From a virus (Duplodnaviria; Heunggongvirae; Uroviricota; Caudoviricetes), in the IMG/VR virus record IMGVR_UViG_2541047869_000003, positions 1-39,722 of that record: a stretch of DNA of 39,722 nt; one strand, written 5' to 3'. Positions 20,364 through 36,700 of the stretch are shown here, in pieces. Position 1 is the stretch's first letter. Every line of letters starts with the position of its first letter. Made by a program: the position numbers and the translations under genes. Under the pieces are notes generated by a model that was not told the origin of the DNA, ran no database searches, and was given only the letters and a program-made list of their open reading frames with translations.

Positions 20364-20606
20364 TCATGCTCCGGTAGTGAGCAGGTCTAACGCTTCCTTC
20401 GATTTACGCACCGCTTCGATAGTGCGGGTCGTGATATCTGAATTAGCGCCGCCTGACTGGAAGTGAATTTTGAATAGTTCAAGCTTCAGCTCGTCAGTGC
20501 CAATGAATTGAAATGCTTCTTCTGCGGCTGCGTTCTGGTTCATGACCAGCTTGTAAATCTCTAACTGGAATTTCTGTTCTTCAGTCATGGGAATAATCTC
20601 TGCCAT
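20364..20606 (-). CDS. Small hypothetical protein (80 aa)
   Basis: Good Shine-Dalgarno (GGAG) upstream of the ATG; between the KilA-N gene and terminase. Confidence 0.5.
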   Translation of the reverse strand: MAEIIPMTEEQKFQLEIYKLVMNQNAAAEEAFQFIGTDELKLELFKIHFQSGGANSDITTRTIEAVRKSKEALDLLTTGA

Positions 20607-20862
20607 TGTTGGCTCCGTTTATCCGTTAAAAGGGATATCAGTTAAGTTATCCCGTGTAGGGTATAAGCCATTGTCGAGACCACTCATTGAATGGCCTCTG
20701 CAATAACCGATGTCTTTCCATCAGTCCGCCACCACAAAGAATCTTTTTTGCCATAAGGCTGGAGGTTCATCTTTCAGTGGCTGCCAGTGTTATTTCCCCA
20801 CTTTCTGGCTTGGGTTGTTTCGTGGTACTGCCGTAATGCAAAAACTGGATTAACCTGCGAAA

Positions 20863-21393
20863 TCACACCATTCCGGGCAAATACATTTGCACTTCATTTG
20901 CCGCTCTCTCACGTGCAACATGAAGCAATCTTTTTCGCCCACCAACGCCCCACTTAGCCATTTGGCTTGCGCACTGGCTTATCGCTTTGGTTTCAGTATT
21001 GATGATGTGATCGATTCTATTCAGACGGGACATTGCGCCAACGCCGAGACGGACAACCGTTTTGAAAACTTCATAAACTTCGATTTCAAATTCCGGCTTA
21101 ATCCATGCTGCATATCTGATTGCCAGAAGTTCAACACCCCACACACCTGGTTCTGCACCACCTTTGATTATTTTAAGTGGCTGAATTTGTTCCAAAGTGC
21201 TTTTTTGCACTTTGGCCTCCAGTGCTTTTATGAAGCGTTTTATCTGCGCGCTACGCAAAAACTGGCTTGGGCGCTGTTGCTCTGTAGCCTCTCCATTTGC
21301 AACTGCTGCTGCATGGAGATCGTTTAAGTTGTAGCGTCCATCCTCATCAACACGAACGGACACACCATTGACAATAACTGTTGGGTACTTCAT
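20863..21393 (-). CDS. KilA-N domain protein
   Basis: 176 aa; N-terminal half (IVNGVSVRVDEDGRYNLNDLHAAAVANGE...PSQFLRSAQIKRFIKALE) resembles the KilA-N DNA-binding fold; sits between lysis genes and terminase. Confidence 0.65.
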   Translation of the reverse strand: MKYPTVIVNGVSVRVDEDGRYNLNDLHAAAVANGEATEQQRPSQFLRSAQIKRFIKALEAKVQKSTLEQIQPLKIIKGGAEPGVWGVELLAIRYAAWIKPEFEIEVYEVFKTVVRLGVGAMSRLNRIDHIINTETKAISQCASQMAKWGVGGRKRLLHVARERAANEVQMYLPGMV

Positions 21394-21540
21394 CAGTGAT
21401 TACCTTTTAGTGATGAACCTTGTCACACAGGATTCCGGCCCACAGAAAGGCACCGATCACCAAACCGGCATCCTCAAGGGTCATCCTGAAAGGTTCTGTG
21501 TTCATAAGTCGCGCGTGTGAAGCGCGTTTACTGCGGACAT

Positions 21541-21563
21541 AAAAAAGCCCCGCATCGCGAGGC
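21541..21563 (-). terminator. Intrinsic terminator downstream of Rz
   Basis: Minus strand: 7-bp stem GCCTCGC / GCGGGGC (one G-U pair), loop GAT, followed by T6. Confidence 0.5.
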
Positions 21564-21597
21564 TCATTAAATGGACTTTGTGATTTGCAAAAAAAAA

Positions 21598-22047
21598 TTA
21601 TTTCAGGCATTGCGTCCTGATGTACTCCTGCAGGTAGTTAACCTGCGCGGTTATCTTGTCGATTCCACTTCGGAGACGGTAATAATTGAGTTCAGCATCT
21701 GCTGTAAGTCTTGGGATTTCTCCATCGCCCATGCTGCTGGCTCCGGTCGTTGACTTTGCACAGGTGGCGGCGACTTGCAGGCGCTTACGCCCAGCAGAAA
21801 CATCAGCACGGAGGCTTTCGATAGTCGCGTTAGCATCAGCAAGCTCCTTTGTGTATCTGGCGTCGAGTTCTGCTACATCACGTTGACGCTTCTGCATATC
21901 AGCGATGATGGATGTGGCTTTATTGCGCTGCTCTTTGTAGGTCATGGCGTTATCACGGTAATGATTAACAGCCCATGACAGACAGACGATGATGCAGATA
22001 ACCAGAGCGGAGATAATCGCGGTTACTCTACTCATTGTTGCCCCCAC
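21598..22047 (-). CDS. Rz: i-spanin Rz
   Basis: 149 aa; N-terminal transmembrane segment ([20 protein letters not shown]) then coiled-coil periplasmic domain; Rz1 embedded in the +1 frame. Confidence 0.85.
21651..21842 (-). CDS. Rz1: o-spanin Rz1 (embedded lipoprotein)
   Basis: Entirely within Rz in another frame; lipobox LGVSAC followed by a Pro-rich stretch ([16 protein letters not shown]), typical of Rz1. Confidence 0.75.
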
Positions 22048-22529
22048 AAACAGACTTCACGCTCAATCTCACGGCGAGTCATCAGCCCTTTCCATTGCTT
22101 ACCGCCAGCGTATGTCCAGCGCCGTAGCTGATCACATGCGCCTTTGATATCGCCCTGGTTTATTTTGCGAAGAAGCGTCGATGTTCTGAAATTTCCAGCA
22201 CCAACGTTGTAAACGAACGAGTAAAGAGCGCCGCGCGTTGTTTCCGGTATATCGACTTTGATGTACGGGTTAATTTGTCTGGCGACAGTGGCAAGGTCTT
22301 TATTCAGGAGGGCTTTGCATTCTGCTTCGGTATACGTTTTACCGAGCATAATGTCTTTTCCGGTATGCCCGTAACATACAGTCCATACACCAACGATATC
22401 TTTATATGGTATGTAGCTGACGCCTTCCAGACCATCGTTACCACTTGGGCCAGTGATTAACACAGATGCTATAGCAATAGCCCCGCCACCAATAGCCGCA
22501 GCAACGGCTTTTCGTAATGATGGAGGCAT
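22032..22529 (-). CDS. SAR endolysin (T4-lysozyme-like, glycoside hydrolase family 24)
   Basis: 165 aa; Gly/Ala-rich signal-anchor-release segment ([20 protein letters not shown]); E-x8-D-x5-T catalytic spacing; C-terminal [11 protein letters not shown] resembles P1 Lyz and phage 21 R. Confidence 0.85.
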
Positions 22530-22744
22530 TATTCACCTCTCGCAGCCTTTCTTCTGTCTTCTCTGATTTTGAAGTACAGATTTGTCAGATAGGTGAGAAA
22601 GCCCAACACAAGGCTTCCAAGCACCCCAATCGCAGCCCACTGTGATGGACTGACCTGATCCAACCACTGTAAAAACCAGTATCCCGCACTACCAGCGGAT
22701 GTTCCGTAGGCAATGCCAGTTGAGATTTTGTCCATTGATTTCAT
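22529..22744 (-). CDS. Pinholin (phage 21 S21-type class II holin), dual-start
   Basis: 71 aa [71 protein letters not shown]; two TMDs; Met1/Met4 dual start; ATGA overlap with the endolysin. Confidence 0.85.
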
Positions 22745-22861
22745 AGCAACGCCTCCGCCAGTAACGGATTGCGTAGTTCTTATATTGGGAATGGGAAAAA
22801 GAAGGCCGCAGCATAACTATCACTGATTAGTTCAGGATAGCCAGTGACTACGGCTAAGTTA

Positions 22862-22937
22862 TGGTGCTGGTTAACGGACTTGAACCGCCACCCATTCGCT
22901 TACAAGGCGACTGCTCTACCATTGGAGCTAAACCAGC
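22862..22937 (-). tRNA. tRNA, anticodon UGU (Thr) by manual folding
   Basis: 76 nt: 7/7 acceptor stem (GCTGGTT / AACCAGC), 4-bp D stem (GCTC / GAGC), anticodon loop CTTGTAA, T arm GGCGG-TTCAAGT-CCGTT, encoded 3' CCA. Confidence 0.6.
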
Positions 22938-22942
22938 ATGTT

Positions 22943-23017
22943 TGGCGGGACAGCGTGGACTCGAACCACGATAAGAAGGTTAACAGCCTTCCGTAATGAC
23001 CTTTATACGACTGACCC
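22943..23017 (-). tRNA. tRNA, anticodon GUU (Asn) by manual folding; may be degenerate
   Basis: 75 nt: acceptor stem 6/7, 5-bp anticodon stem GAAGG / CCTTC with loop CTGTTAA, T arm CGTGG-TTCGAGT-CCACG, encoded CCA; one mismatch in the D stem. Confidence 0.5.
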
Positions 23018-23020
23018 AAA

Positions 23021-23065
23021 TAAAAAAAAAGCCACCGTTGCAACTTAAGAGTCACTAACGGCAGC
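23021..23065 (-). terminator. tR'-like intrinsic terminator just downstream of Q
   Basis: Minus strand: ~9-bp stem (GCTGCCGTT ... AACGGTGGC, two G-U pairs) followed by T9. This is the lambda tR' position between Q and the late genes. Confidence 0.5.
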
Positions 23066-23076
23066 TTACCTTCTAA

Positions 23077-23601
23077 TTATGGCCAAATGGATAATTGCAT
23101 GTCAAGACTTTTAACAGCAACATGTTTAACTTTCTCAACACGTTTACGAATTTTGAAAGCATTTTGCATTGGTTGGTACAAAACAAATAATGATGCTTTC
23201 AGGATGTCGTCAATTTCATTTCTACAGGTTGCCAGTGAAGGTTTTCTCCATCCCTCGCCACCACGTCCACACATCTTGCGTGGCTTTGCAGTCGCGTGAT
23301 AGTAGGATGCAATTGCTCGCTTAGATGAACCATGAGCGTAGTAGCTGAGGAGGATGCCAAAGGCTTTCTTGTCAATGCACATGACGGAATCGACGACCTG
23401 AGAAATCAACATTCCATCATCATCATTGCACATTGGCCTTGTCATAATTCTTCCCGGCTCTACGCTCTCCATGAACTTCGCTATTACGCTGCTCATGCGC
23501 TTTTCCAAACGACCTGAATAAACCCATGCGCCCCACAGTTCAAGCCAGCCATTCAGCCACTCATGCTGTTCTTTGGTGAGGTTTAGTTCTCTTATGCCCA
23601 C
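23077..23601 (-). CDS. Q: Late-gene antiterminator Q (phage 21/82-type)
   Basis: 174 aa immediately upstream of tR', the tRNAs and the lysis cassette; Cys/His-containing C-terminal region; overlaps the upstream phosphatase gene. Confidence 0.8.
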
Positions 23602-24263
23602 GCGCCTTCTCCCTGTACCTGAATCAATGTGAGATTTCCGCAGAACACTGCCCCAGTATCGATATACATCTGGTTGGCAAATTTGAGTGGTTTCACTGCT
23701 GGCGTATGACCAAAGATAAACGTGTCCGCGCCTTTAATTTCTTTAACGATCCCGTCTTGTGAGTTGCTGATTCGTTCGCGGTTCCAGATTACCTGCTGAT
23801 GATCAACTGGCTTTCCAAATTCGTATTCGTCACAAGGATAATCGGCGTGGCAGATGACATATTTTTTACCTTTGCTCACCAGTTCGATGATTAACGGAAG
23901 TTCTTCTGCTTTATGGGCAAGAGCTTTAGCCAGAATTTCTTTGTCGTAATCGAGATTAAAGAACCAGCCACCGCCATCAAGCAGCCAATGATTAACGTTT
24001 CCACGCTCTGATAAGCCATCAATCATCATTTGCTCATGGTTTCCACGTACAGCTCTGAACCAGGGGAATGTGATTAATTCCAGGCATTCAACGTTCTCTG
24101 CACCACGATCAACCAAATCGCCCACCGAGATAAGCAGGTCTTTTTTGTTGTCGAATCCAATCGTATCCAGTTTGTTCATCAGGTTCGTGTAGCATCCGTG
24201 CAGATCGCCAACTACCCAAATATTTCGGTATTTGCTGCCATCAATTCTTTCGTAGATATTCAT
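23592..24263 (-). CDS. ninI: Ser/Thr protein phosphatase (lambda NinI/ORF221-like, calcineurin-like metallophosphatase)
   Basis: 223 aa with metallophosphatase motifs GDLHG, GDLVDRG, GNHE and a later GH. Confidence 0.9.
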
Positions 24264-24871
24264 GCAGCCTCACTTCTGCTGTTTCGCAGTTTTTTAAGTT
24301 TCTGTTGATACTCCGCCTTGATGGTCCTGCACTCTTCGACAGTCCAGCGATGGCGGTTATGGTTTGATTCGATTTCGTCTACTGCTTCCTGCCCGATGCG
24401 GTTAATCAGTTCGACGCGATACGGAACGAGATTTCCGCTTTTGTGCTGGTTGCACACCACGCATTGCTTGTGAATATTGCGTTCATCAAATCGGAGTTGA
24501 GGCGCCGCAGCAGTTGTCCGGTAATGCCCGGCATCCCACTGAGCAGACGTGAGCGTTCCGCACGAGATACATGGTAAGTCGCGGTCTCTTTCTCTGATGA
24601 AGGCGTTTACGGCTTGTTGGGCTTGTTTAATCCAGTAACTGCGGGGCTTTAAGGCGAGTTTTCGAATCTTAAGTTTATCTTTCTGTTTCTGCTCCTCTCG
24701 TCGTCGTTTCTTCTCTGCTGCCTTTTCCGCTTTTTCGCGTTCTTTGCTTCGTCGTTCGAGTGCTATCTTGGTTCCACACTCTGGAGAGCACCACCACTGA
24801 TTGGCGAATGCAGGGTGAAACCATTCCCGACATTCATCGTTTTTACATCGTCTTCGCGCTGGTTTAGCCAT
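24260..24871 (-). CDS. ninG: NinG (Rap) recombination protein
   Basis: 203 aa; N-terminal Cys cluster ([12 protein letters not shown]...WWCSPEC) and basic Lys/Arg/Glu-rich segment as in lambda NinG. Confidence 0.85.
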
Positions 24872-25046
24872 CGTCTTCTTCCTCGTGCATCGAGCTATTC
24901 GGATCGCTCATCAGTTCTGCGCAGCAGTGCTCACACACGTGAACTTCCAGCACATGCAGCTTCTGACCGCAGTTAGCGCACGTTAAAGCTCGCTCGACGC
25001 TTTCTTTCTGGTATTGAATGGATTGGGATGGGCTAAGCATTAACAA
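24864..25046 (-). CDS. ninF: NinF
   Basis: 60 aa, ...[58 protein letters not shown], near-identical to lambda NinF from memory. Confidence 0.85.
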
Positions 25047-25983
25047 CCTCCATACAAACTTTCACGAATGCCGTTGCTACTTCTGCATTGATTGCGTTTC
25101 CATATCCAATAATTCGCTGATCTTGATTGCGCTTTGCCATTCTTCCCAGTGTGGACTTGCCTCGTCCCAAGCTTTTGGCAATGCCATTAACCATCGGGAA
25201 TGAGCCGGGTCTAACTGGACGATATTTTTCATCTCTACAGTAAAGCCAGTCTGCATCTCTCCAGAAGCCGTTAACCGGTAATGGGTACATAGCTTCACCG
25301 TCCCGGGAAGTTTCAAGCAGATTCTTGGGGTTCCGCTCTTGTCTTTTCCGCTGTAGCAATGCGTTGAACCTGTTGCATCGTTCGCTAAAGGAGTTTGCCA
25401 TCCCGCTAGTCTCACGCATCCAGATAGGTTCTGAATTCCCCTGCGCGTCTCTGGCTGAAAGTTGATATTTGTCGTTGGAGTAGGCCACCCAATACAATCG
25501 CTGCCTGATGTGCGGAGAACCGAAGCCCGCAGCGCAAATATCGGTACCTGCAGAGGTGTAGTTCGCACCTTCCAAGTCAGTTTGTACAAGGTCGAGCCAA
25601 GCGAGGCCGTCTGCGCTTGCAACCTGTTCGCCAATAACGATGCCAGGATTGCATTTTTCAATAAGCCAGAAGAATGCCGGCCATAAGTGCCGCTCGTCAT
25701 CAACCCCTTTTCCTTTGCCTGCCGAGCTGAAAGGTTGGCATGGGCAACTTCCTGTCCAGATACTCTTGTTGTCTGGCCATCCTGCTTTTCTAAGTGCATA
25801 GCTCCAAACTCCGATTCCTGCAAAAAAGTGGTGCTGGGTAAATCCTCGCAAATCACCTGGTGTGACATCTTCAATACTCCTTTCATCTACATAACCGGGG
25901 GCAATTTCTCCAGCGTCAATTAAGTTACGCAGCCATTGCGCTGCATACGGATCTATTTCGTTGTAATACGCAGTCATCGTCAT
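25033..25983 (-). CDS. Orphan DNA (cytosine-5) methyltransferase
   Basis: Start taken at MTMTAYYNE (ATGA overlap with the ninE stop). Motif I variant FFAGIGVWS, motif [18 protein letters not shown] (catalytic PCQ), EQV variant of ENV. No adjacent restriction endonuclease candidate. Confidence 0.8.
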
Positions 25984-26156
25984 TTCCTCGCACGATGTCT
26001 TAGCCACCGGATATCCCACAGGTGAGCCGTGTAGTTGAAGGTTTTTACGTCAGATTCTTTTGGGATTGGCTTGCGTTTATTTCTGGAGCGTTTCGTTGGA
26101 AGGTATTTGCAGTTTTCGCAGATGATGTCGGTGATACTTCGTCGCTGTCGCCTCAT
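25980..26156 (-). CDS. ninE: NinD/NinE-family small protein
   Basis: 58 aa from the internal Met, [58 protein letters not shown], matching a lambda nin-region small protein from memory; starts adjacent to the ninB stop. Confidence 0.6.
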
Positions 26157-26593
26157 GCCGCCCTGTCTCCCCATCTCGCTTTCCACTCCAGAGCCAGTCG
26201 CGCTTCGTCTGACCACTTAACGCCACGCTCTGTACCGAATGCCTGTATAAGCTCTAATAACTCCGCAAATTCGCTTACACGCATCCTGCTGGTTGACTGG
26301 CCTATTACCACAAAGCCATTCCCGGTAAGGTTAGGAACAACGTCCTGCTGCTTTAATGCTGCTGTAAAAACGCACTTCCAGCTTTCTGCATCCAGCCAGC
26401 GACCATGCCATTCAACCTGACGAGAGACGTCACCAAGGCAAGCCCAAAGCTTTCGATTCTGGTCTAAGCTGCGGTTGCGTTCCTGAATGGTTACTACGAT
26501 TGGTTTGGTTGGGTCTGGAAGGATTTGCTGTACTGCGTGAATAGCGTTTTGCTGATGTGCTGGAGATCGAATTTCAAAGGTTAGTTTTTTCAT
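26153..26593 (-). CDS. ninB: NinB (Orf-family recombination mediator)
   Basis: 146 aa, the same length as lambda NinB; first nin gene after the replication genes. Confidence 0.85.
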
Positions 26594-26786
26594 GACTTCC
26601 CTCTCTAACAGATTTCAGGTTATTCCACTCCGTTACCGCACTGCGATAATTCGCGGCCGCCACAGTAGAGTGGTTAGCGCAGTAGATTTGGCACCCGTTC
26701 TCCATGTCGAATATTGTCGGTGATTTTCCGCATTTACATTTTTTGGCACGCGGTGCGTCTGAACACATTCCGTTAACGGTGTCCAT
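26574..26786 (-). CDS. Hypothetical Cys-rich small protein
   Basis: 70 aa with CKCGKSP...GCQIYCANH cysteine spacing; between the helicase and ninB (the lambda ren position). Confidence 0.4.
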   Translation of the reverse strand: MDTVNGMCSDAPRAKKCKCGKSPTIFDMENGCQIYCANHSTVAAANYRSAVTEWNNLKSVREGSHEKTNL

Positions 26787-26867
26787 CAGGATCCCCCTAG
26801 TTCTTAATCCAATAAAAAAGGGCTACTGTGTAAATAGCCCCTGTTATTAGCTCAGTGATGTAGATGG

Positions 26868-28244
26868 TCATACGTCAGCCCCTTGTGCATATCGTCTGCC
26901 ACGCGCAGCAGGTGCATTTGATACTGTGCAAATCTGTCTGGCTTCGTCCTGGTCACATGCAACAAAGTGTCCGTTGCAGAACCGCTGGTAAACCGTACCA
27001 AGCGAGCCAAAACGGTTTTTCGTCACAATGATTTCAGCAAATGGCGCGGCGCTACTGTTCTCGTCATATACCGCTTCCCGATAGAGCATGATGATTGAGT
27101 CTGCGTCCTGTTCAATGCTTCCAGAATCACGCAAATCTGCGTTTGTCGGGCGTTTGTTTGGTCGCTTCTCAACATCGCGCGAAAGCTGACTTAGGGAGAT
27201 AACAGGCGTTTTCAGGTCTTTCGCCATCGCTTTTAGACTTCCGGAGATGTGAGCAATTGCGAGGTCGTTGCGATCTGCTTTCGGCTTCTCAATCAGGCCA
27301 AGATAATCCGCCATGATGAGTGACAGGTTTGGATTTTCCTGTTTGTGCCGTTCTGCGATTGAGCGAATTTCTTCGACCGATAACCGCGAGGCATCGACTA
27401 CCCATACATCCAAATCTGCAAGCTGACTCATGCCGTTAGCAACACGCGCCCAGCCTTCGTCATCCATCGATGCAGGATTTCGCAGTACGCTAACCGACAT
27501 CCTCCCGGCGTTGGCAATGCTTCGCTCTGCAATCTGCAATGCGCTCATTTCCATTGAGAAAATCAATACCCCGCGCCGGACGTCAGAACCAGGAATAACT
27601 CGGCTTGCAACGCCTTCGGCAATCTTCAGCGCCAGTTCTGTTTTCCCCATACCAGGACGAGCAGCGATTATCACCAGGTCTTCCGCGTTCATCCCTCCGG
27701 TGATGGCGTCAAGTTCTTCGATTCCGGTCTTCAGGGTATCTGACTCTTCTCCGTTCCTCAGACGCCTGTCAAGCGTGTCAGTGTAGTCAGTGATGATTTC
27801 CCCTAACCGTACCGGTTTAACCTCGTCACGGGGCTTTCTGATGGCTGAGAGACGCTTTACAAGTTCATCCATCGCCTGACTCGATGCGTCGATGGTTCCG
27901 CTCTGAATTGGTTCACGCATTTCATCCATGATTTCCAGCACCAGACGGCGGTGATAGTTATCCGCGACCATTCCGGCATATCCCTTCAGGTTTGCGGCAC
28001 TCGGGCAGTTTTTGCTGGTCATCAGGATTGACGTGAAATGCTCCTCTCCGCACGCCTCGGCAACCATCAGCGCGTCGATTAGGTTTCTGTTTCTCGCCTG
28101 CTTACGGATAACCTCGAAGGCTTTCCGGTAGAGCGGAATTGAAAACGCTTCCGGCTCCAGCGTTGCCAGAACGTCGCTGGCGGTTGGTGTTAATCCACCA
28201 ATCAGCAGGCCACCGATAACGCTCGCTTCGATATCCTGTTTCAT
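26868..28244 (-). CDS. Replicative DNA helicase (DnaB-like, P22 gene 12 position)
   Basis: 458 aa; Walker [16 protein letters not shown], Walker B-like [10 protein letters not shown], RecA-fold C-terminal domain; overlaps the O-like gene by 4 nt. Confidence 0.9.
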
Positions 28245-29062
28245 GCAATCCCCCTGTCTGCAAACTTCCCTTCCCGAACTCCCGTTAACGAATCTTCCCT
28301 CAGCAGGTAATCAAAATCAGCTGTCCAGCCCGTGTCGTTGTCTCCGAAGTAAAACGGCTTGGCCTGATGCACAAACGCCCTGACATACGCTCTGAAACCG
28401 TCCACGTTTGGCGTTTTCAGTTGCGGGATGATTTTCTTCAGGCGGCGTTTGCGTTTCTCGTTGACCGCAACAGCGTGTGGCAGTCTGTCACCGACTTCGG
28501 TGTTGTAAGCGTTCAGGAAGGATTCGTAGTCGATTCGTTCTGCCTTGCGACGTTCAGGTTTAACCTGCCCATCGCCGCCCCCGTTAGGGGGTAAGGGGGT
28601 ATTTGTATTTATTGTCTTTTGTATATTGTCTTTTGTGTTTAGCTGACTTGGCTTATACCCATTAGCCGACTTGGCTAATGTTTTATTAGCTGTTTTAGCT
28701 AATGTTAAGCTGTCATGGCTAATCCACTGAGAAACCACCTTGTTCACTCCGATTTTCACGCCATCAGCAATGAGGAATTTACGCTCAATAAGCTGGCGCT
28801 TGGCAGCGCAAACATGAGTGTGATGAATACCTGTCATGGCTGCTATCTGCGTGTTTGTGAGTCGATCCATCGGCTTATTGAATCCGTATGTCTTGCGCAT
28901 GATAGCGAGCATCACCTTCAACTGCCGGACGGTTAAATCAGCCATCAGCAGACTGTCGGTAATCTCGTTAGCAACGCGCATGAAACCATCTTCGGTATCT
29001 GCCACGCGATGCTCCACGACCTCCAGTTGAGGCCTGTAATCAGCTAACTTAACGACGCCCAT
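28241..29062 (-). CDS. Replication initiator, lambda O-like (P22 gene 18 position)
   Basis: 273 aa; N-terminal [36 protein letters not shown] matches the lambda O iteron-binding domain motif (RQFKVLLAILRKTYGWNKPMD) from memory; origin iterons lie inside the gene. Confidence 0.85.
28600..28722. repeat. Replication origin: four ~17-bp iterons plus adjacent AT-rich region, inside the O-like gene
   Basis: Iterons at ~28639, 28662, 28686 and 28705: TTAGCTGACTTGGCTTA, TTAGCCGACTTGGCTAA, TTAGCTGTTTTAGCTAA, TTAAGCTGTCATGGCTAA. AT-rich block with tandem ATTGTCTTTTGT x2 at ~28604-28640. Order (iterons then AT-rich in the direction of O transcription) matches lambda ori. Confidence 0.6.
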
Positions 29063-29210
29063 GTTTCACTCCTGCTTTGGCTAGTCTGTAAACACCAACA
29101 AGGCGCTCTGCGAACGCCCTGTTATTTGCTGCGGCTACCACTAATCCCTCAGGTGAATCAGGGTGTCGAATCTCTTCTTTTTCCTGGTATTTCTTACGAC
29201 GTTTTGTCAT
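29049..29210 (-). CDS. Small basic hypothetical protein between cII and the O-like gene
   Basis: 53 aa ([53 protein letters not shown]), not in the supplied ORF track; strong Shine-Dalgarno (AGGAG, 5 nt spacing); stop overlaps the O-like start region. Confidence 0.4.
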   Translation of the reverse strand: MTKRRKKYQEKEEIRHPDSPEGLVVAAANNRAFAERLVGVYRLAKAGVKHGRR

Positions 29211-29242
29211 AATGACTCCTGTGGATTGATCCAGTAATTCCC

Positions 29243-29542
29243 TCAGAATTCCATCTGGATTTGTTCAGAACGCTCGGTCTTGCACACCGGGCGTTTTTTA
29301 TTGGTGAGTCCATCAAGCGCATACTTAAAAGCCCTGCTAATCGGACTGATGTCTGATGCCATTCCGAAAGCACACAAGACCGAAGCAATAAATCTCCAGT
29401 CCGTTCTGCTTATCTTCGATTCATGACAGCCAATCATCTTTGCCAGACCGCGCTGTGTAAGCGTTGACAGGTTGATGAGTAAATCTGTTTCTGCACGATC
29501 AACGTCGCGCTGTGATAGTTTGCTGTAACTTGTTTGTTCCAT
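29243..29542 (-). CDS. cII: CII-family transcriptional activator (P22 c1 equivalent)
   Basis: 99 aa; HTH region and C-terminus ...LTNKKRPVCKTERSEQIQMEF matching the lambda CII tail (TNKKRPAATERSEQIQMEF) from memory. Confidence 0.9.
   Translation of the reverse strand: MEQTSYSKLSQRDVDRAETDLLINLSTLTQRGLAKMIGCHESKISRTDWRFIASVLCAFGMASDISPISRAFKYALDGLTNKKRPVCKTERSEQIQMEF
29271..29299 (+). terminator. oop-like antisense RNA terminator inside the 3' end of cII
   Basis: Plus strand (antisense to cII): stem CGCTCGG / CCGGGCG (one G-U), 9-nt loop, then T6. Same placement as the lambda oop terminator. Confidence 0.4.
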
Positions 29543-29606
29543 TTCTTAAGATTTCCATAGGTAAATAATCACTAACACTCATCTTTCGATGAGTGCTTAA
29601 TTAGTT

Positions 29607-29641
29607 ACCGCGTTGTCGGCGGTGCAGATTGATAAAGAGCG
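29607..29641 (-). promoter_or_regulatory. nutR (boxA + boxB) downstream of cro
   Basis: Minus strand: boxA CGCTCTTTATC followed by hairpin ACCGC-CGACAAC-GCGGT with a GACAA loop like the nutL boxB; starts ~8 nt after the cro stop. Confidence 0.5.
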
Positions 29642-29648
29642 GTGTTAC

Positions 29649-29876
29649 TTATGCAGCCAGAAGGTTCTTTTTGCTTATTTCAAGCATTTCGCTTGCTTGA
29701 TATTTGCCACCAGAAATCTCTTCGATTTTTGATGCGTATTTAGTTTTCCCAAAAAACTCAGTCTTAGGGAGGAAGCCGTTTTTGAGCCACTTATAGACAG
29801 CCCTTTCGCTAACTCCACAAGCCTTCGCAACTTCAGGGATGCCGACACCTTTAATCGGCTCATCAAGATTTTGCAT
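29649..29876 (-). CDS. cro: Cro-like repressor (HTH)
   Basis: 75 aa, divergent from the repressor gene; HTH segment GIPEVAKACGVSERAVYKWLKNG. Confidence 0.75.
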   Translation of the reverse strand: MQNLDEPIKGVGIPEVAKACGVSERAVYKWLKNGFLPKTEFFGKTKYASKIEEISGGKYQASEMLEISKKNLLAA

Positions 29877-29954
29877 AGGAATATCCTTTTTCGTACTTTC
29901 AGTACGTATTATGGTTGAACTGAAAGTTTTTGCAAGTGCTTTAGTATCGTACTC
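29877..29954. promoter_or_regulatory. OR operator cluster with divergent PR and PRM
   Basis: 78-bp cro-cI intergenic region with related inverted repeats CGTACtttcaGTACG (29892-29906), TGAACtgaaaGTTTT (29916-29930) and CGTACtcatgGTTCA (29948-29962, overlapping the cI ATG); half-site about CGTAC/GTTCG. Confidence 0.55.
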
Positions 29955-30662
29955 ATGGTTCAGAATGAAAAAGTGCGCAAAGAATTCGCCCAGCGGCTAG
30001 CGCAAGCCTGTAAAGAAGCTGGTCTTGATGAACATGGTAGGGGGATGGCCATAGCCCGTGCCCTTTCTCTTTCGTCCAAAGGCGTTAGCAAATGGTTTAA
30101 TGCTGAGTCTTTACCGCGTCAGGAAAAAATGAATGCGCTTGCGAAATTTCTAAACGTTGATGTTGTTTGGCTTCAGCACGGCACTTCGTTAAATGGAGCG
30201 AATGATGAAGATACTCTTTCATTTGTTGGCAAATTAAAAAAAGGGTTAGTGCGCGTGGTTGGTGAGGCAATTCTTGGTGTTGATGGTGCCATCGAGATGA
30301 CCGAAGAGCGCGATGGGTGGCTCAAAATTTATAGCGATGATCCAGATGCCTTTGGTCTTCGTGTGAAAGGAGACAGCATGTGGCCCAGAATAAAATCAGG
30401 AGAATATGTACTCATTGAGCCTAACACCAAAGTATTCCCGGGTGATGAGGTGTTTGTCAGAACCATCGAAGGACACAACATGATCAAGATTCTTGGCTAT
30501 GACAGAGATGGAGAATACCAGTTTACAAGCATCAACCAAGACCACAGACCAATAACGTTGCCTTATCATCAAGTAGCAAAGGTGGAGTATGTGGCTGGTA
30601 TTCTGAAGCAGTCCCGCCATCTGGATGACATCGAGGCAAGGGAGTGGCTGAAAAGTTCGTGA
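29955..30662 (+). CDS. cI: Prophage repressor, CI/C2-type (HTH plus LexA-like S24 autopeptidase domain)
   Basis: 235 aa; N-terminal HTH; C-terminal domain with Ala-Gly cleavage region and GDSMWP catalytic Ser motif plus downstream Lys. Confidence 0.9.
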   Translation: MVQNEKVRKEFAQRLAQACKEAGLDEHGRGMAIARALSLSSKGVSKWFNAESLPRQEKMNALAKFLNVDVVWLQHGTSLNGANDEDTLSFVGKLKKGLVRVVGEAILGVDGAIEMTEERDGWLKIYSDDPDAFGLRVKGDSMWPRIKSGEYVLIEPNTKVFPGDEVFVRTIEGHNMIKILGYDRDGEYQFTSINQDHRPITLPYHQVAKVEYVAGILKQSRHLDDIEAREWLKSS

Positions 30663-30719
30663 CTTCATCGTCACATAGCTGGTAACCAATGGCCTGAAGA
30701 GACGTTTGGATGATGAAAG

Positions 30720-30745
30720 GTCGCACAGAAGTGCGGCCTTTTTTA
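30720..30745 (+). terminator. Intrinsic terminator after the repressor gene
   Basis: 8-bp stem GGTCGCAC / GTGCGGCC (one G-U), AGAA loop, T6 tail. Confidence 0.7.
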
Positions 30746-30773
30746 TTGGTAGTGATCCACACATTGTGCTAAC

Positions 30774-30958
30774 GCATTAATTAGCATTAATATTTAGCTT
30801 AATCACAGAATAGCTAAAAATATTTTAGCGATAAATATATACATATCAATGAGATAAATAAAAATGATGCATTTTGTAGCTAATTGATGATTTAGCTACC
30901 ATTGCCCTGCTTATTTGAAATAAGCTATCATCACCATAACCAAGCATATGGGGGATTT
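30774..30958 (+). promoter_or_regulatory. AT-rich putative promoter/regulatory region of the cI-N cassette gene
   Basis: Perfect 8-bp inverted repeat GTAGCTAA-N8-TTAGCTAC (30876-30899), tandem GCATTAAT-like repeats (30774-30810), imperfect palindrome ATAGCTAAAAATATTTTAGCGAT; candidate sigma-70 elements TTGCCC-18-TATCAT (about 30902-30931); Shine-Dalgarno GGGGGA before the ATG. Confidence 0.4.
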
Positions 30959-31894
30959 ATGGATACTAAAAAACGAGCTCAAAAAGCAGCAGCAATGTCA
31001 GCAATCGTTAGATCAGCTCCAAAGCCAACTCACACAGGATTAATGGCGACAGGTGTTTCTTGTGCTGTTTTGCCTGATGGTCGCAGAGTGGTTTCAATGC
31101 AAGGTGCAAATGGATTGGCAGAAACATTCGGTGTATCTGTTGGCTCAAAAATGCCAAGATGGGTACCAAATGGGAAGCCAGGTCAATTACCATATGTTCT
31201 CCAAGCAAATGAGCTTCAGCCATATATTTCTGATGAACTAAGAGAAGCGCTAGCAGAACCAATTGTATATAAAAATACATCAGGTGCAGGTGTCGCTTAT
31301 GGCATTGACGTTACTATGCTACCAGCGCTTTGCGAGGCATGGACAGATGCTGAGAGGGATGGAGCCCTACGACAAAAGCATCACTTGAATACAGCTGCAA
31401 AAGCCAAAGCGCTCTATAAAGCTCTAGCTAGAGTTGGCGCCGTTGCGCTCGTTGATGAAGCGACTGGATACCAAAAAGAACGAGAGCGCGATGAACTGGC
31501 AAAACTCCTTGAGCAATTCATCGCTAAAGAAATGCGACCATGGGTAAGCACATATCCGCCAGAATTCTTTGAGGAGTTATGTAGACTCAGAGGAGTCCCA
31601 TTCAAAGCAAACATGCGGAGACCGCAATACTTTGGTCATCTTGTGAATAACATAACTTATGACCGCATGGCACCAGAGCTAAGAAATGCGCTAAAGGAAG
31701 AAAGAGCAAAAGCAAAAAAGGCAGGTGCAAAAATGCATCAGTTTCTATCAGAGGGAACTGGATATGGTCTTCTTCAAAAGAGACTTACAGGGGTAACAAC
31801 ACTCATGCAAGCAAGCGATACTTATGAAGATTTCATCCAATTGCTTGATAAGGTACACCCTCTACTAACCGTAGAAGATATTGACGCAGAATAA
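30959..31894 (+). CDS. Uncharacterized 311-aa protein in the cI-N accessory slot (lambda rexAB position)
   Basis: Start taken at MDTKKRAQ (good Shine-Dalgarno), not at the upstream in-frame Met of the ORF track. Lower GC by eye and AGA/TTA codons; flanked by intrinsic terminators. No confident family assignment from memory (possibly P63C-like, unverified). Confidence 0.6.
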   Translation: MDTKKRAQKAAAMSAIVRSAPKPTHTGLMATGVSCAVLPDGRRVVSMQGANGLAETFGVSVGSKMPRWVPNGKPGQLPYVLQANELQPYISDELREALAEPIVYKNTSGAGVAYGIDVTMLPALCEAWTDAERDGALRQKHHLNTAAKAKALYKALARVGAVALVDEATGYQKERERDELAKLLEQFIAKEMRPWVSTYPPEFFEELCRLRGVPFKANMRRPQYFGHLVNNITYDRMAPELRNALKEERAKAKKAGAKMHQFLSEGTGYGLLQKRLTGVTTLMQASDTYEDFIQLLDKVHPLLTVEDIDAE

Positions 31895-31903
31895 CTTTAT
31901 TGC

Positions 31904-31929
31904 CCCGGCCTCAGCGCCGGGTTTTCTTT
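31904..31929 (+). terminator. Intrinsic terminator after the cassette gene
   Basis: Stem CCCGGC / GCCGGG, 6-nt loop, followed by TTTTCTTT. Confidence 0.7.
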
Positions 31930-32096
31930 GCCTCACGATCGCCCTCCCATATTTAATAGCCGCAAATGTGGTAAACCGCGAACCAACTCACCAGCAATAA
32001 CCACTCCAACTACAGACCAATCTGCAGCATTTACAAAAATAAATTTCCTTATATATCAAAATCATATCTCGCAGCATTAATAAATCACAAAAATTT

Positions 32097-32135
32097 CGTA
32101 CCAATAGTTCTTGATAATGTCGAACTATTGGTTCA
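32097..32135. promoter_or_regulatory. OL operators overlapping putative PL
   Basis: CGTACcaataGTTCT (32097-32111) and CGAACtattgGTTCA (32121-32135) share half-sites with the OR sites; the two contain an 11-bp perfect inverted repeat ACCAATAGTTC / GAACTATTGGT. Candidate PL: TTGATA-17-CATTAT. Confidence 0.45.
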
Positions 32136-32185
32136 TTATTGTCACATCAGCAGGACGCTGGAAGCCAAACGGAAAAGATTGGCAG

Positions 32186-32219
32186 GCTCTTTAACTTCGA
32201 TGGGGCGCTGACAAAGCGC
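32186..32219 (+). promoter_or_regulatory. nutL (boxA + boxB)
   Basis: boxA GCTCTTTAA (32186-32194) then boxB hairpin GCGCT-GACAA-AGCGC (32205-32219), matching the P22-type boxB with GACAA loop as I recall it; ~120 nt upstream of N. Confidence 0.65.
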
Positions 32220-32338
32220 AAACAGATACCAAACGAGATGGGTTTGGCGGTGATGTGAATTGCAGCTGCAACGACAGCAACCAGAAGATCAGCATCTGGC
32301 GCATCACCACCAAAGCCATTTCACATGAGGGAAACATC

Positions 32339-32647
32339 ATGACGGTAATCGTGTACGGAAAATCAACATTCGCAGGAAATGCCAAAACTCGCCGTCATGA
32401 GCGGCGCAGAAAACTGGCTATCGAGCGTGATTCCATCTGCAACATCATCGATTCGATCTTCGGAACAGACAGCGAGGAACCAGTTCAGAAAGGCACGAGA
32501 AAGCGTTTAAGCCTTTCTGAAAAAGCAATATCACTCGGCAACATTCGTAACCAAAATACCGACGAATGCAGTGGAAGTATTTGCCTGCCAAACGTAGCCA
32601 TTTACGCGGCAGGCTACCGGAAATCCAAACAACTGACAGCGAGGTAA
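32339..32647 (+). CDS. N: Antiterminator N (P22 gene 24-type)
   Basis: 102 aa from the internal Met; arginine-rich RNA-binding motif GNAKTRRHERRRKLAIER near the N-terminus; Shine-Dalgarno GAGGGA. Confidence 0.85.
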   Translation: MTVIVYGKSTFAGNAKTRRHERRRKLAIERDSICNIIDSIFGTDSEEPVQKGTRKRLSLSEKAISLGNIRNQNTDECSGSICLPNVAIYAAGYRKSKQLTAR

Positions 32648-32668
32648 CGATCCCCCGCCGTCGAGGAA

Positions 32669-33208
32669 CTAAATTAGCTCATCAGCTTTACCAGCAAAGC
32701 GCATATAACACTCATGGAACCAGACGTCAGGTATAACAAATTTCTCTTTACCTGACGCGCTGTAAGTCACACCTGAGCGATGGAGAAGACCTTTTCTCAT
32801 AAGAGATAAAGCGACCGGATCGCCGTGCTTAAGTACGATTTTGTTATTTGCCATAACAGCAAATGCTAAAACCTCTTTTTCCTGAATACTCAGAGAATTG
32901 AACAGGCGCTCAGTCTCCACAATTACTTTAGCCTCATCTCTCTTACTGAGATATTTTTTATATCTGTCTGAAGATGCCAGAAATATAAACTCCATCACCC
33001 TGTTCAGAACATAACTGATACACAAAAGCATTGCGTAATACATCCAGTGATCTGGAAGTATTTCAGGATTCCTTATATCTACCCACTCTTTAATTGATGC
33101 TGGGGTGATTATTATCAAGGCAATTAAAATAATAAGCATATGAATTAACTGTTGTAGCGTAAGACCACGCAGGAAGAAACGTAATAGTTCCTGCCACCAG
33201 TTACTCAT
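32669..33208 (-). CDS. sieB: Superinfection exclusion protein B (SieB-like membrane protein)
   Basis: 179 aa; N-terminal transmembrane helices (LIHMLIILIALIIITP, YYAMLLCISYVL); next to N, opposite orientation to PL transcription, as for sieB in P22 and lambda. Confidence 0.7.
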   Translation of the reverse strand: MSNWWQELLRFFLRGLTLQQLIHMLIILIALIIITPASIKEWVDIRNPEILPDHWMYYAMLLCISYVLNRVMEFIFLASSDRYKKYLSKRDEAKVIVETERLFNSLSIQEKEVLAFAVMANNKIVLKHGDPVALSLMRKGLLHRSGVTYSASGKEKFVIPDVWFHECYMRFAGKADELI

Positions 33209-33417
33209 CGGTGAATCTCCATCATTCTCTCTGTAGGGGTGAATAGAGTTTATCCGATTTCTCGCTGTAGGGGTACACGAGAACCACCGAGCCTGATGTG
33301 GTTAAAAGACAGGCACAATCTTTACTACCGCAAGCCACGCAGTGAAATGGGTGTGACTTGTGTTGGTCGCCAGAAAATGAAATTAGGCAGCAAACCACTT
33401 ATTTGAGAGGAATTAAT

Positions 33418-34041
33418 ATGTCATCAATCCGCTTAACTACGAGAATGAAAGAGGAAATCGCTCGTAACGCTTTAATTAAGTCTGGGGTTTTCACTGAACT
33501 TGAAGAAGTAACAAAGTTAAAGAACCAGCTTGCACTTGACGCCAGAGTTATTGCGTTTGGCGGTAAAAAGAAAACTGAGGAAGTGGATCAGTTATCATCC
33601 AAGTTGGTAGCTATAAGTGAAGAACTTGAAAAGATGGGATGTTCATTTTACTCATACGATGTTCGTTCTACTTCAATTTATCTGACTGTATCTGGCAGAA
33701 GGGTTGGATGGCATTCATATGGGAAAGACGGCAACGGCGAAGATATATTGCTCCCTACTCCAACCAAATATAAATGCATGTTTGACGCAGAACACGAAAT
33801 AACAAAAAGGTTTGATGAAATCTGCGCATTGCAACAAAACCTTGAAGCCTTGAAAAAGGATATCGAATCAAATGTATGGGCTGCTTTGAACTCAGTCACA
33901 ACAGTTAAGCGACTTATTGAAGTTTGGCCTGAAAGCAAAGAATTGCTACCAAAAGAAGCAGATAAAGCAAGTACAGCACTTCCTGCTTTACGGGTAGAAG
34001 ATTTGAATAAGATGATTGGACTTCCTTCCGAGGCCGCATAG
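33418..34041 (+). CDS. Hypothetical protein (207 aa) between sieB and cIII
   Basis: Start taken at MSSIRLTTRMKEEIARNA; AT-rich; no family recognised. Confidence 0.5.
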   Translation: MSSIRLTTRMKEEIARNALIKSGVFTELEEVTKLKNQLALDARVIAFGGKKKTEEVDQLSSKLVAISEELEKMGCSFYSYDVRSTSIYLTVSGRRVGWHSYGKDGNGEDILLPTPTKYKCMFDAEHEITKRFDEICALQQNLEALKKDIESNVWAALNSVTTVKRLIEVWPESKELLPKEADKASTALPALRVEDLNKMIGLPSEAA

Positions 34042-34265
34042 TCGACCTTTATTTTTGGCACTAACAACAGAATAAACACTGCACTGTGTATTCATTCCAA
34101 CGAGTGAATACGCGGAGCAATGTCGCTCGTAACCAAACAGGAGCCGACTTGTTCTGATTATTGGAAATCTTCTTTGCCCTCCAGTGTGAGGGCCTTTTTA
34201 TATGCATACCAATAACGCTTCACTCGAGGCGTTTTCGTTATGCAATCAAACAGAAGGAGCATCCT

Positions 34266-34436
34266 ATGCAACAGTTCGCTATTGCAGGGGCGGCATCGGT
34301 TCGCCCTTTCAACCCGATTTTATCGGTACAGCATTCACGAAAAAATATTTTAACCGGAGCAGACTTTAAACAACCAAGAATGAAAAGCTTGCTCGAAAAG
34401 CTTTGGGATATTTTGAAACAACAAGGCCGTCCATGA
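34266..34436 (+). CDS. cIII: CIII-like protein (FtsH inhibitor)
   Basis: 56 aa MQQFAIAGAASVRPF...SLLEKLWDILKQQGRP resembles lambda CIII (MQYAIAG...SLLERI...ILNQPG) from memory; Shine-Dalgarno AGGAG. Confidence 0.6.
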   Translation: MQQFAIAGAASVRPFNPILSVQHSRKNILTGADFKQPRMKSLLEKLWDILKQQGRP

Positions 34437-34517
34437 GTTTTACAGATAACTGGTCAGACGAAGAATTCATTCGTCAGATGAACAAAATGCTCAATCAGAA
34501 CAAAGAACAGGAGAAAG

Positions 34518-34829
34518 ATGATGATTCTGACTCTGAATGATAAGCGTGAAATATCGCAAATAATCGCAAGTTTTACTGATGAAGATTACGAACGAATCAA
34601 CAGTGAAGTTGATCGCCTCTGCAAACGTTGCGACCCAATAAGCGAAATGCTTCGCTCATATAAACCAGATGAACACACTAAGGACGCTATCGACTGGCTG
34701 GAAGATGATGACTGTGACTATCAGGAAAAAGCCGCTGAATGGTTCTGGGATGCAATAACCAAAAGAGTTAAGGCTGAATATGCCTTCGCAATATTCAAAC
34801 GCAGACACATTTTTGGAGAAGCAGCATGA
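34518..34829 (+). CDS. Hypothetical acidic protein (103 aa) translationally coupled to recT
   Basis: ATGA overlap with the recT start; Asp/Glu-rich with a CKRCDP motif. Confidence 0.45.
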   Translation: MMILTLNDKREISQIIASFTDEDYERINSEVDRLCKRCDPISEMLRSYKPDEHTKDAIDWLEDDDCDYQEKAAEWFWDAITKRVKAEYAFAIFKRRHIFGEAA

Positions 34830-35728
34830 GCAATATCGTTGAATTCGTTAAACAGCAAGAGCAGTTATTCTGCGGAGCATTGACTGAACAGACGGTGACA
34901 TGGGCTAAGGAAAGCCAGTTTGCAATTCAGTATTTCCAGAAAAATGATTACCTGGCTAAAACGGCACTGGCAAATCCAACCAGCGCACAGAACGCCATCA
35001 TCAATGTTGCGGCGATCGGAATCACCTTAAACCCGGCCAGCAAACTTGCTTATCTAGTTCCGCGCGACGGCATGGTTTGCCTTGATATCAGCTATATGGG
35101 ATTACTTCACCTTGCACAGTCGACAGGATCAATTAAGTGGGGGCAATGTAAACTGGTGTACTCAAACGACACCTATGAATCAAACGGCCTTGATTCAGCG
35201 CCAACCCACAAATACAACGCATTTGGTGAGCGAGGCTCTATTGTTGGTGGTTATTGCACGGTTAAAACAGCAGATGGTGACTACCTGACTGAAGAAATGA
35301 GTCTGGCAGAAATTAAAGCTGTGGAAGCAACGAGCAAGGCAAAGAATGGACCGTGGAAGACATTCTGGGAAGAGATGGCGCGTAAAACAATAGTTAAACG
35401 CGCCAGCAAATACTGGCCTAAAGCACAGCGACTGGATAATGCCATTCACCTGCTTAACGAAGATGAGGGTATGCATCAGGAACCGGTTATGCCGCACAAA
35501 TCAGAGGAAGATATCCGCGAAGATGAACGGAAACGCCAGCAGGAAATAATGGAAAAAGCACAACTTCTTTGTGATGAAATGGCTCAGGCTGAAAACATGG
35601 ATGATTTGAAGAGATATTTTGCAGAAGCATATCGCCTGACATCTGGAATGAAATTGCAGCAGAACGTACAAGCCATTTACGCAGAATGCAAAGCGAAACT
35701 GGAGGTTACCAGTGAGCAAACTGTATGA
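34826..35728 (+). CDS. recT: RecT-family single-strand annealing protein
   Basis: 300 aa; GPWKTFWEEMARKTIVKRASKYWP matches the RecT motif (GPWVTHWEEMAKKTAIRRLFKYLP) from memory. Confidence 0.85.
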   Translation: MSNIVEFVKQQEQLFCGALTEQTVTWAKESQFAIQYFQKNDYLAKTALANPTSAQNAIINVAAIGITLNPASKLAYLVPRDGMVCLDISYMGLLHLAQSTGSIKWGQCKLVYSNDTYESNGLDSAPTHKYNAFGERGSIVGGYCTVKTADGDYLTEEMSLAEIKAVEATSKAKNGPWKTFWEEMARKTIVKRASKYWPKAQRLDNAIHLLNEDEGMHQEPVMPHKSEEDIREDERKRQQEIMEKAQLLCDEMAQAENMDDLKRYFAEAYRLTSGMKLQQNVQAIYAECKAKLEVTSEQTV

Positions 35729-36194
35729 AATTTCCAATGAATACGCAAAATTGATGGATTCAGATTTAGAACCAGAGATGATTGCTGACACAATAGAAGG
35801 CATGGAAGGAGAATTTACCGATAAAATAGAGCAACTTCTTTCCGTCATTAAAAATGAATCTGGTTATGCCGAACGCCTCAAGGAAGAGGCAAAGTCACTG
35901 AATGAGCGAGCCACAGTAATTCAAAATAAGATTGACAGCATTATGGCGTATATAGCGTCATCGCTTGAAATGGTTGGCAAGAAAAAGATTCGAGCAGGTA
36001 TTCACCAGGTAACAATCCGCAAACCGTCAGAAATTGTAGAAATCATCGACTCAAGCGCCCTTCCTCCTGAATACGTTGAGTTTGAAACGACAATTAAAGC
36101 CGACAAACTGGCAATCAAACACCAACTAAAAGCAGGAATAAATATCCCCGGTGCTCAACTCAAAGTTGGGAAACCTTCACTTCTTATCAAATAA
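35712..36194 (+). CDS. Siphovirus Gp157-like protein (recombinase-associated)
   Basis: 160 aa, overlaps the recT 3' end by 17 nt; N-terminal MSKLYEISNEYAKLMDSDLEPEMIADTIEGMEGEFTDKIEQLL resembles the Gp157 family as I recall it. Confidence 0.55.
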   Translation: MSKLYEISNEYAKLMDSDLEPEMIADTIEGMEGEFTDKIEQLLSVIKNESGYAERLKEEAKSLNERATVIQNKIDSIMAYIASSLEMVGKKKIRAGIHQVTIRKPSEIVEIIDSSALPPEYVEFETTIKADKLAIKHQLKAGINIPGAQLKVGKPSLLIK

Positions 36195-36205
36195 CGGTAT
36201 CGCCT

Positions 36206-36520
36206 ATGAAAAAGACTCCATGGGAGAAATGGGAAGTCGATTTCTTGCGCGAAGTGGCGGCGACAATGCCAGTTGAAGTTATCGCTGAAAAACTGGAAAG
36301 GACTGAAAAAGCAGTAATGGCGAAAGCAACAAGGATTGGAGCTGACATTGTTAGCCGACTTCGTGGAAGACGCTGGACAAGAGCCGAAGTATCACTTTTC
36401 GGTAAGTTCTCCGCAGAAGAAATAGCAATTGCAACCTGCCGCTCAATTTATTCAGTAAGAGCTATGCGATACAAGCTAAAAAAACTCGATGAAGAAAGAG
36501 CAGGCATACGAATAAATTAA
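36206..36520 (+). CDS. Hypothetical protein with internal duplication (two HTH-like half-repeats)
   Basis: 104 aa; residues ~5-45 and ~55-95 look like related repeats (W..W.......EVAA...[15 protein letters not shown] versus RWTRAEV...[17 protein letters not shown]). Confidence 0.45.
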
Positions 36521-36700
36521 CAAAGAGGAATTAACCATGAGAGGACTTGCATACAATCCCGGCATTCTTCCGGCAGAAATGATTATTCGCCAACGCGTAA
36601 AGCCAATGCCATCGAGAGAGGAATTGCTTAAAAGAAATTCTTTTCCATCAGTGAATCAAAACAAATATCTGAATGCGATGTGGCGCAAAGGAGGCAACCA

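Follow-up and report, generated by a model that had tools for sequence, protein, structure and literature searches.

In phage lambda, the oop RNA pairs with the cII mRNA, and RNase III-dependent cleavage follows (PMC3985674, PMC5869508); its 5' end has been placed at position 38675 and the -10 element of its promoter, pO, at 38683-38688 (Hayes et al. 2018, PMC5869508). When 23 phages were aligned on the conserved 33-bp oop/pO junction (Hayes et al. 2012, PMC3349717), position 1 of the alignment was the ATG of lambda O, of a P22 orf48 homologue or of an HK97 gp53 homologue, the last two being treated as an optional orf, and P22 orf48, which lies between oop and gene 18, is described there as naturally absent from lambda. 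That study gave the optional orf no function and did not analyse selection, overlap with the initiator gene or helicase association. RNA-seq has also revealed an OOP transcript in BTP1, a P22-like prophage in which the sequence upstream of pO is non-lambda (PMC7067206). Here we describe the corresponding junction in a stretch of viral DNA of 39,722 nt (IMG/VR record IMGVR_UViG_2541047869_000003; hereafter the window, whose numbering is used throughout except where lambda positions are given). The window represents a mosaic lambdoid, P22-like phage, in which an open reading frame (ORF) of 53 codons lies between cII and an O-like replication initiator gene and an oop-like element is present on the opposite strand.

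This architecture is a rediscovery of one already described for lambdoid phages. The window carries the standard lambdoid cII/oop control unit, which is a correct but ordinary finding, and the apparent 180-nt gap between cII and the initiator gene is a known small gene. What the present analysis adds is that, in the loci sampled, both small-orf families are found only in replication modules with their own helicase and never with lambda P. We consider it highly probable that the window contains both an oop homologue and a real gp53-family gene linked to the initiator, and we favour, with moderate confidence, the fuller explanation in which oop functions as in lambda and the gp53-like protein is co-expressed with the initiator, its role as a replication accessory being the more tentative part. 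The immunity and replication genes lie mostly on the minus strand, with cI on the plus strand, and the features on which the argument depends are as follows.

29243-29542, minus strand: cII, 99 aa, the predicted target of oop (Pfam Phage_CII, E = 6.3e-35)
29267-29299, plus strand: tO-type intrinsic terminator, stem 29267-29297 and T6 run 29294-29299 (terminator scan; covariation)
29221-29299, plus strand: predicted oop antisense RNA, about 79 nt (lambda homology; fold)
29216-29220, minus strand: Shine-Dalgarno (SD) sequence AGGAG, which precedes the ATG (29210..29208) of the gp53-like gene by 5 nt (direct reading; lambda alignment)
29205-29213, plus strand: predicted pO core, TGn at 29205-29207 and -10 hexamer CATAAT at 29208-29213 (lambda alignment)
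29049-29210, minus strand: gene for a small basic protein of 53 aa, HK97 gp53 family, phrog_1331 (ORF listing, ATG start; profile match)
28241-29062, minus strand: O-like replication initiator, 273 aa, ATG at 29062..29060 (Pfam Phage_rep_O, E = 5.9e-33)
26868-28244, minus strand: DnaB-family replicative helicase, third gene of the replication module (NCBIfam TIGR00665 DnaB, E = 2.8e-100)

The distance from the cII stop (29243) to the O-like ATG (29062) is 180 nt, compared with 32 nt in lambda (38653 to 38686), so the initial annotation was right to give this interval as about 180 bp and larger than its lambda counterpart. From the cII stop to the ATG of the small ORF, on the other hand, there are exactly 32 nt, the same spacing as between lambda cII and O, so that the start of the small ORF corresponds to that of lambda O.

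The 53-codon ORF is a gene of the HK97 gp53 family

The product of the ORF at 29049-29210 is 100% identical to HK97 Gp53, to the protein encoded by Sf6 gene 42 and to further annotated homologues, and it matches phrog_1331 over its full length (residues 1-53 of 53, E = 1.4e-37). The frame of 53 aa and the strong SD reported in the initial annotation are both present, the AGGAG being read at 29220..29216. Its description of the ORF as unannotated holds for the ORF track on which it relied, probably as a consequence of a length cut-off (the default of the ORF listing is 60 aa), but not for the phage records of HK97 (Gp53), Sf6 (gene 42) and ES18 (gp58), in which the gene is annotated. Searches with megablast and tblastn located gp53 in 97 phage records, with most copies being 98-100% identical; besides the three phages just named, the carriers include epsilon34 (gene 49), several Stx phages and the mEp/HK series. 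A genome scan yielded 17 more loci from Edwardsiella, Trabulsiella, Yokenella, Enterobacter, Citrobacter, Chimaeribacter, Serratia, Rahnella, Brenneria and others. HK97 gp53, Sf6 gene 42 and ES18 gp58 occupy the same position as the window gene and likewise overlap the initiator gene by 14 nt, although the window differs from HK97 in that gp53 is paired with another cII/oop variant, the window cII being 82% identical to HK97 cII.

Evidence that the ORF encodes a protein under selection was obtained from a set of 26 loci (Escherichia, Salmonella, Cronobacter, Erwinia, Enterobacter, Edwardsiella, Serratia, Rahnella, Brenneria and others). An intact gp53 ORF of 52-55 aa with an ATG start is present in 26 of 26 loci, a purine-rich, SD-like run precedes the ATG in most of them, and all length differences are in frame. 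The median ratio of nonsynonymous to synonymous substitution rates (dN/dS) is 0.16 for the 184 pairs with dS > 0.1, indicating purifying selection, and mean pairwise diversity at codon positions 1, 2 and 3 is 0.24, 0.16 and 0.49, respectively. Eleven invariant residues have free third positions; the invariant residues include E12, E13, P20, A27, F33, A34, E35, R36, G39 and A44, with third-position diversity of 0.4-0.76. Together, the codon-position diversity, the dN/dS value and the invariant residues with variable third positions count out both a chance ORF and a purely cis-acting element, and the 53-codon ORF is a real protein-coding gene of the HK97 gp53 family. For annotation purposes, it should be called under that family name, and oop should be added as a non-coding RNA.

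Two other identities for the ORF were rejected. It is not the detached N-terminus of lambda O, as in a split gene, because similarity to lambda ends after ATGACAAA and the O-like protein is full length, matching Phage_rep_O at positions 1-95 of 95. Nor is it a member of the P22 orf48/DUF2740 family, given that it has no Pfam match at E <= 1 and that the hhalign probability is 0.7%.

In some prophage copies (L093 at 4777-4845, and L076, L089, L036, L038 and L132), gp53 is frameshifted or truncated (22 aa) or the lambda-type O gene is truncated (91-194 aa); these loci are probably decaying prophages. In two contigs assigned to organisms outside the enterobacteria, L010 (a metagenome-assembled genome labelled "Bacillota bacterium") and L013 ("Chryseobacterium sp. 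18061"), the gp53 copies are 100% and 83% identical, respectively, and occur alongside P22 c1-type, O-like and DnaB-family genes; it is likely that enterobacterial prophage DNA was mis-binned there or is present as a contaminant.

A predicted oop homologue lies antisense to cII

Judged by its sequence, the plus-strand element at approximately 29221-29299 is a homologue of lambda oop and more than an analogue. The predicted RNA is identical to lambda oop in 67 of 79 aligned columns, with seven of the 12 differences falling in the terminator loop, and the alignment of the window with lambda shows similarity from the cII 3' end through ...CAGGAGTCATTATGACAAA, stopping after ATGACAAA. As in lambda, the element is antisense to the 3' end of cII, has its 5' end beside the SD of the next gene, carries CATAAT with an upstream TG on the ATG of that gene, and ends in a terminator hairpin followed by T6. 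It differs from lambda oop in having a terminator loop that is 3 nt longer (TCTTGCACA versus TTGCCG), which adds one codon to cII, and in five point differences in its 5' half; in addition, the stretch that precedes the -10 and takes in the -35 belongs to the gp53 reading frame here and to O in lambda. Homologous elements are annotated as oop in the HK629 record and, with promoter and terminator, in the P22 record. An Rfam 15 scan of 28800-30000 at E <= 10 returned no oop family among its matches, the best of which (17 bits, compared with a gathering score of 40) is at chance level.

The predicted RNA overlaps the last 57 nt of cII, and the hairpin falls within these 57 nt. Its plus-strand stem (29267-29297) has 12 pairs, six of them G-C, and a 7-nt loop, and is followed by the T-run at 29294-29299, in agreement with the initial annotation, which had placed an oop-like terminator with a T6 tail on the opposite strand inside the cII 3' end at the lambda position. 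This is the strongest terminator-like site of the region scanned, in which five such sites were found, as opposed to 1.1 +/- 1.0 in shuffled sequences. The RNA from 29222 to 29300 has a folding energy of -29.1 kcal/mol (z = -4.72), and none of 200 shuffles was equally stable. Across 19 variants, the tO helix is 97.6% paired, and two compensatory pair changes (CG<->UA and GC<->CG) arise in the stem although the opposite strand encodes the C-terminus of CII; the 5' stem-loop is less well kept, its two helices having 74.7-80.7% of their cells paired. Among a further 120 oop-core loci gathered from IMG/VR, the oop sequence occurs in 32 distinct forms and the terminator in four variants.

The promoter core TGtCATAAT at 29205-29213 is the same as in lambda and in 100+ related loci, and CATAAT, which is the reverse complement of ATTATG, includes the start codon of the gp53-like gene in the manner seen in lambda. 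The element thus has a predicted pO -10, an antisense position in cII and an intrinsic terminator of its own, all as in lambda, and transfer of lambda position 38675 suggests that the RNA starts at G29221. The sequence, position, promoter core and terminator can be read directly from the window. Judging from the homologous lambda oop and from BTP1, transcription from the predicted pO would begin at approximately 29221 and give an RNA of about 79 nt that ends at the terminator (29267-29299) inside the cII 3' end, and this RNA would pair with the cII mRNA, direct its RNase III-dependent cleavage, lower CII and favour lytic growth.

Some observations concern the promoter side of the junction. Among 21 gp53 homologues, codons 8-11 (Y-Q-E-K; 29178-29189) have a synonymous diversity of 0.10-0.27, compared with 0.5-0.76 in codons 12-29, and these low-diversity codons coincide with the place where the -35 of pO would be. 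The same TACCAGGA string is present in orf48 at equal distance, and it is possible that the antisense promoter imposes a nucleotide-level constraint on this part of gp53. An antisense hairpin with a T-run is found 59-87 nt upstream of the gp53 ATG in 18 of the 26 distinct gp53 loci (L005-L026), including loci in which the upstream gene is P22 c1-like and the hairpin sequence is unrelated to that of lambda; an oop-type unit therefore seems to accompany the gp53 junction widely.

gp53 is linked to the replication initiator

The O-like gene, with its ATG at 29062..29060, shares its first 14 nt with the end of the gp53-like gene. An overlap of the gp53 stop with the initiator ATG was found in 26 of 26 loci, being 14 nt (ATGGGCGTCGTTAA) in the 24 loci that include the window type and 17 nt in two loci from Rahnella. 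The O-like gene has an SD of its own (AGGAG at 29073..29069), which falls within the gp53 codons A-G-V and is conserved in 19 distinct junctions. Because gp53 ends 14 nt inside the initiator gene, the two genes are expected to be co-transcribed and are probably translationally coupled.

The neighbours of gp53 were compared in 20 loci. Downstream, Phage_rep_O is encoded in 13 of them and HK022/Sf6 or DnaD-like initiators in the others, and upstream, Phage_CII is encoded in 13, with YdaT, P22_Cro and ANT being the Pfam matches among the rest. Given this variable upstream neighbour and the constant overlap with the initiator, gp53 is best regarded as the first cistron of the replication module and not as a satellite of cII; the idea that it is a cII-linked gene was rejected for the same reason. 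The module runs in the order gp53, O-like initiator and DnaB-family helicase, with gp53 taking over the SD-ATGACAAA junction that serves gene O in lambda.

Loci built on this shared SD-ATGACAAA junction fall into three classes, in which the junction is followed by lambda O directly, by gp53 and then an initiator, or by an unrelated 48-aa ORF and then an initiator. The 48-aa ORF is P22 orf48, which is the same as HK620 hkaW, Pfam DUF2740 (E = 8.9e-29 for orf48) and phrog_1913. Like gp53, the DUF2740 genes (P22 orf48, HK620 hkaW and the HK022 orf) sit in the slot between oop and the initiator, use the SD-ATGACAAA junction and have a stop-ATG overlap, which for orf48 amounts to 8 nt (ATGAGTAA). 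Beyond the N-terminal 12 residues, MTK..YQ(E/D)K, however, no homology between orf48 and gp53 can be detected (hhalign probability as above). This family occupies the slot in L037, L042, L059 and approximately 25 other IMG/VR loci, and in the P22 locus L149 it is found at 1201-1347. Its homologues are labelled "tail protein" in RefSeq phage records (e.g. NC_002730 for HK620, NC_019723 for HK630 and NC_014900 for ST160), following the phrog_1913 category "tail"; given that the gene encodes 48 aa, is early and lies between oop and the initiator, the label is almost certainly an annotation error that has been propagated.

The third gene of the module was tallied for each class in those loci that have enough downstream sequence.

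Lambda O directly at the junction: lambda P 41, DnaB-family helicase 0, T7 gp4-like primase-helicase 0, none of the three 1
gp53 at the junction: lambda P 0, DnaB-family helicase 38, T7 gp4-like primase-helicase 1, none of the three 1
orf48 at the junction: lambda P 0, DnaB-family helicase 13, T7 gp4-like primase-helicase 6, none of the three 0

The initiator of ES18 combines first 16 codons of the gp53 type with a lambda-O N-domain at 94% identity, and its partner is a primase-helicase. This combination argues that gp53 tracks the non-P helicase side of the module and not the origin-binding domain.

To our knowledge, neither gp53 nor P22 orf48/DUF2740 has been assigned a function in 25 years, and no functional study of HK97 gp53, orf48, DUF2740 or hkaW was found in our literature searches. 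Two unrelated small genes are locked onto the initiator start, in this sample only in modules with a phage-encoded helicase, and both may encode replication factors.

Possible functions of gp53

The AlphaFold2 model of gp53, built from 31 sequences, has a disordered basic N-terminus (residues 1-19) followed by helices at 20-29 and 31-46, and the conserved helical core reads PxGLVVAAxNNxxFAERxxG. The family is confined to Enterobacterales prophages. On the basis of the linkage described above, we tentatively suggest that gp53 is a small accessory factor of replication modules with their own helicase, which may act on the initiator or on the helicase. A more far-reaching version, which we regard as rather unlikely, is that gp53 and the unrelated DUF2740 protein are analogous small factors, both made by co-translation with the initiator, and that lambdoid modules which have their own DnaB-family helicase or primase-helicase in place of the lambda P loader need one such factor. 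It might assist in bringing the phage helicase to the origin or in loading it there, or keep the host DnaB/DnaC system away, and if this were true these proteins would constitute an unrecognised component of a classic replication system.

Several points weigh against a lambda-like oop and a coupled replication accessory. The -35 region of the predicted pO is not lambda-like, direct reading giving TGGTAT with two of six matches, and lambda pO is reported to need sequence 45-94 nt upstream (Hayes 2018, PMC5869508), a region that is replaced here by gp53 coding sequence; the strength of the predicted pO is therefore uncertain. The O-like gene has a strong SD of its own, so that coupling to gp53 may be dispensable. 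The tallied loci are mutually related, and hence not phylogenetically independent, and were partly selected with the oop-core pattern, which makes the helicase association a lead and not a proof; the link between gp53 and a self-encoded helicase may reflect only co-inheritance of a module family. Finally, the structure model of gp53 is of moderate confidence only, with a predicted local distance difference test score (pLDDT) of 68. No match to gp53 was obtained in Pfam, NCBIfam, PADLOC, a PDB profile search or a Foldseek comparison of the AlphaFold2 model with the PDB, and a HMMER profile search of 1.84 billion representatives recovered 24 clusters only, all small stand-alone proteins, with no larger or known family among them.

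Other explanations of the small ORF differ in how they account for these data. It might be a cis-acting leader cistron that brings ribosomes to the initiator start and so sets the level of O, the peptide itself having little or no function, and it might also buffer O from events at the oop/RNase III site beside its SD. Such a role would be consistent with the stop-ATG overlap being invariant in 26 of 26 loci and with the presence, in the same slot elsewhere, of the unrelated 48-aa orf48 of P22, which also ends inside the initiator start and has only the 12 junction-proximal residues in common with gp53. Purifying selection over the whole peptide (dN/dS of 0.16, and 11 invariant residues with free third positions) is nevertheless unexpected if only translation counts, and the O-like gene retains its own SD; we therefore consider this explanation improbable.

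A further proposal is that gp53 is a host-directed accessory, for example an anti-defence protein or an inhibitor of a host replication or repair factor, that rides in the early right operon. The small size of gp53 and its restriction to Enterobacterales prophages are in keeping with this idea, as is the finding that gp53 subtypes, such as the forms with a 2-aa insertion, follow the host genus (Enterobacter, Citrobacter) and not the type of initiator. Genes of the moron type, however, usually vary in position and have their own signals, whereas gp53 keeps its place at the initiator start in every locus, and it has no PADLOC match. On balance, we do not expect gp53 to be such a factor.

The initial annotation had taken the small ORF and the antisense hairpin together as an extra layer of cII regulation, and a corresponding explanation would have the basic protein act with oop as a further regulator, either of cII or of the choice between lysis and lysogeny. 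The ORF does lie directly downstream of cII, with the -10 of the oop promoter on its start codon, and a basic product could bind nucleic acid. The overlap with the initiator is constant, however (26 of 26 loci), while the upstream neighbour is not, being a lambda-type cII, a P22 c1-type gene, or a gene for a YdaT, Cro-like or ANT protein; moreover, lambda controls cII without gp53, and gp53 shows no similarity to a regulator family in Pfam or NCBIfam. We conclude that a regulatory role of this kind is very unlikely and that the proposed extra layer is not borne out, oop itself being the classical, known layer, as annotated in HK629 and P22.

That the ORF is a chance open frame, conserved only through DNA or RNA signals such as the region upstream of pO and the SD of O, is barely credible and is ruled out by the codon statistics: synonymous diversity is indeed low in codons 8-11 (the would-be -35 of pO) and around the SD of O, but diversity at third codon positions (0.49) exceeds that at first (0.24) and second (0.16) positions, indels are in frame, amino acids remain invariant despite saturated synonymous change (pS up to 0.78), and the ATG is kept in 26 of 26 loci with an SD-like run in most.

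Other features of the region

When 20000-39722 of the window was used as a 20-kb query against a phage collection, no record was identical to the window, and the best matches, Kapi1 and HF4s, covered 38% of the query. Upstream of cII, the immunity region contains two further genes.

29649-29876, minus strand: cro
29955-30662, plus strand: cI

A nutR-like site is present between cro and cII on the minus strand (29574-29641), in which boxA (CGCTCTTTA, at 29641..29633) precedes a hairpin of 10 bp (29597..29574) whose loop is GAAA. Within the O-like gene, at 28638-28723, there are four iteron-like direct repeats of approximately 16-22 nt (AGCYGWYWTRGCTAAT) with a spacing of 20-24 nt, and their location inside this gene is the position expected for the replication origin, as in lambda, ES18 and P22.

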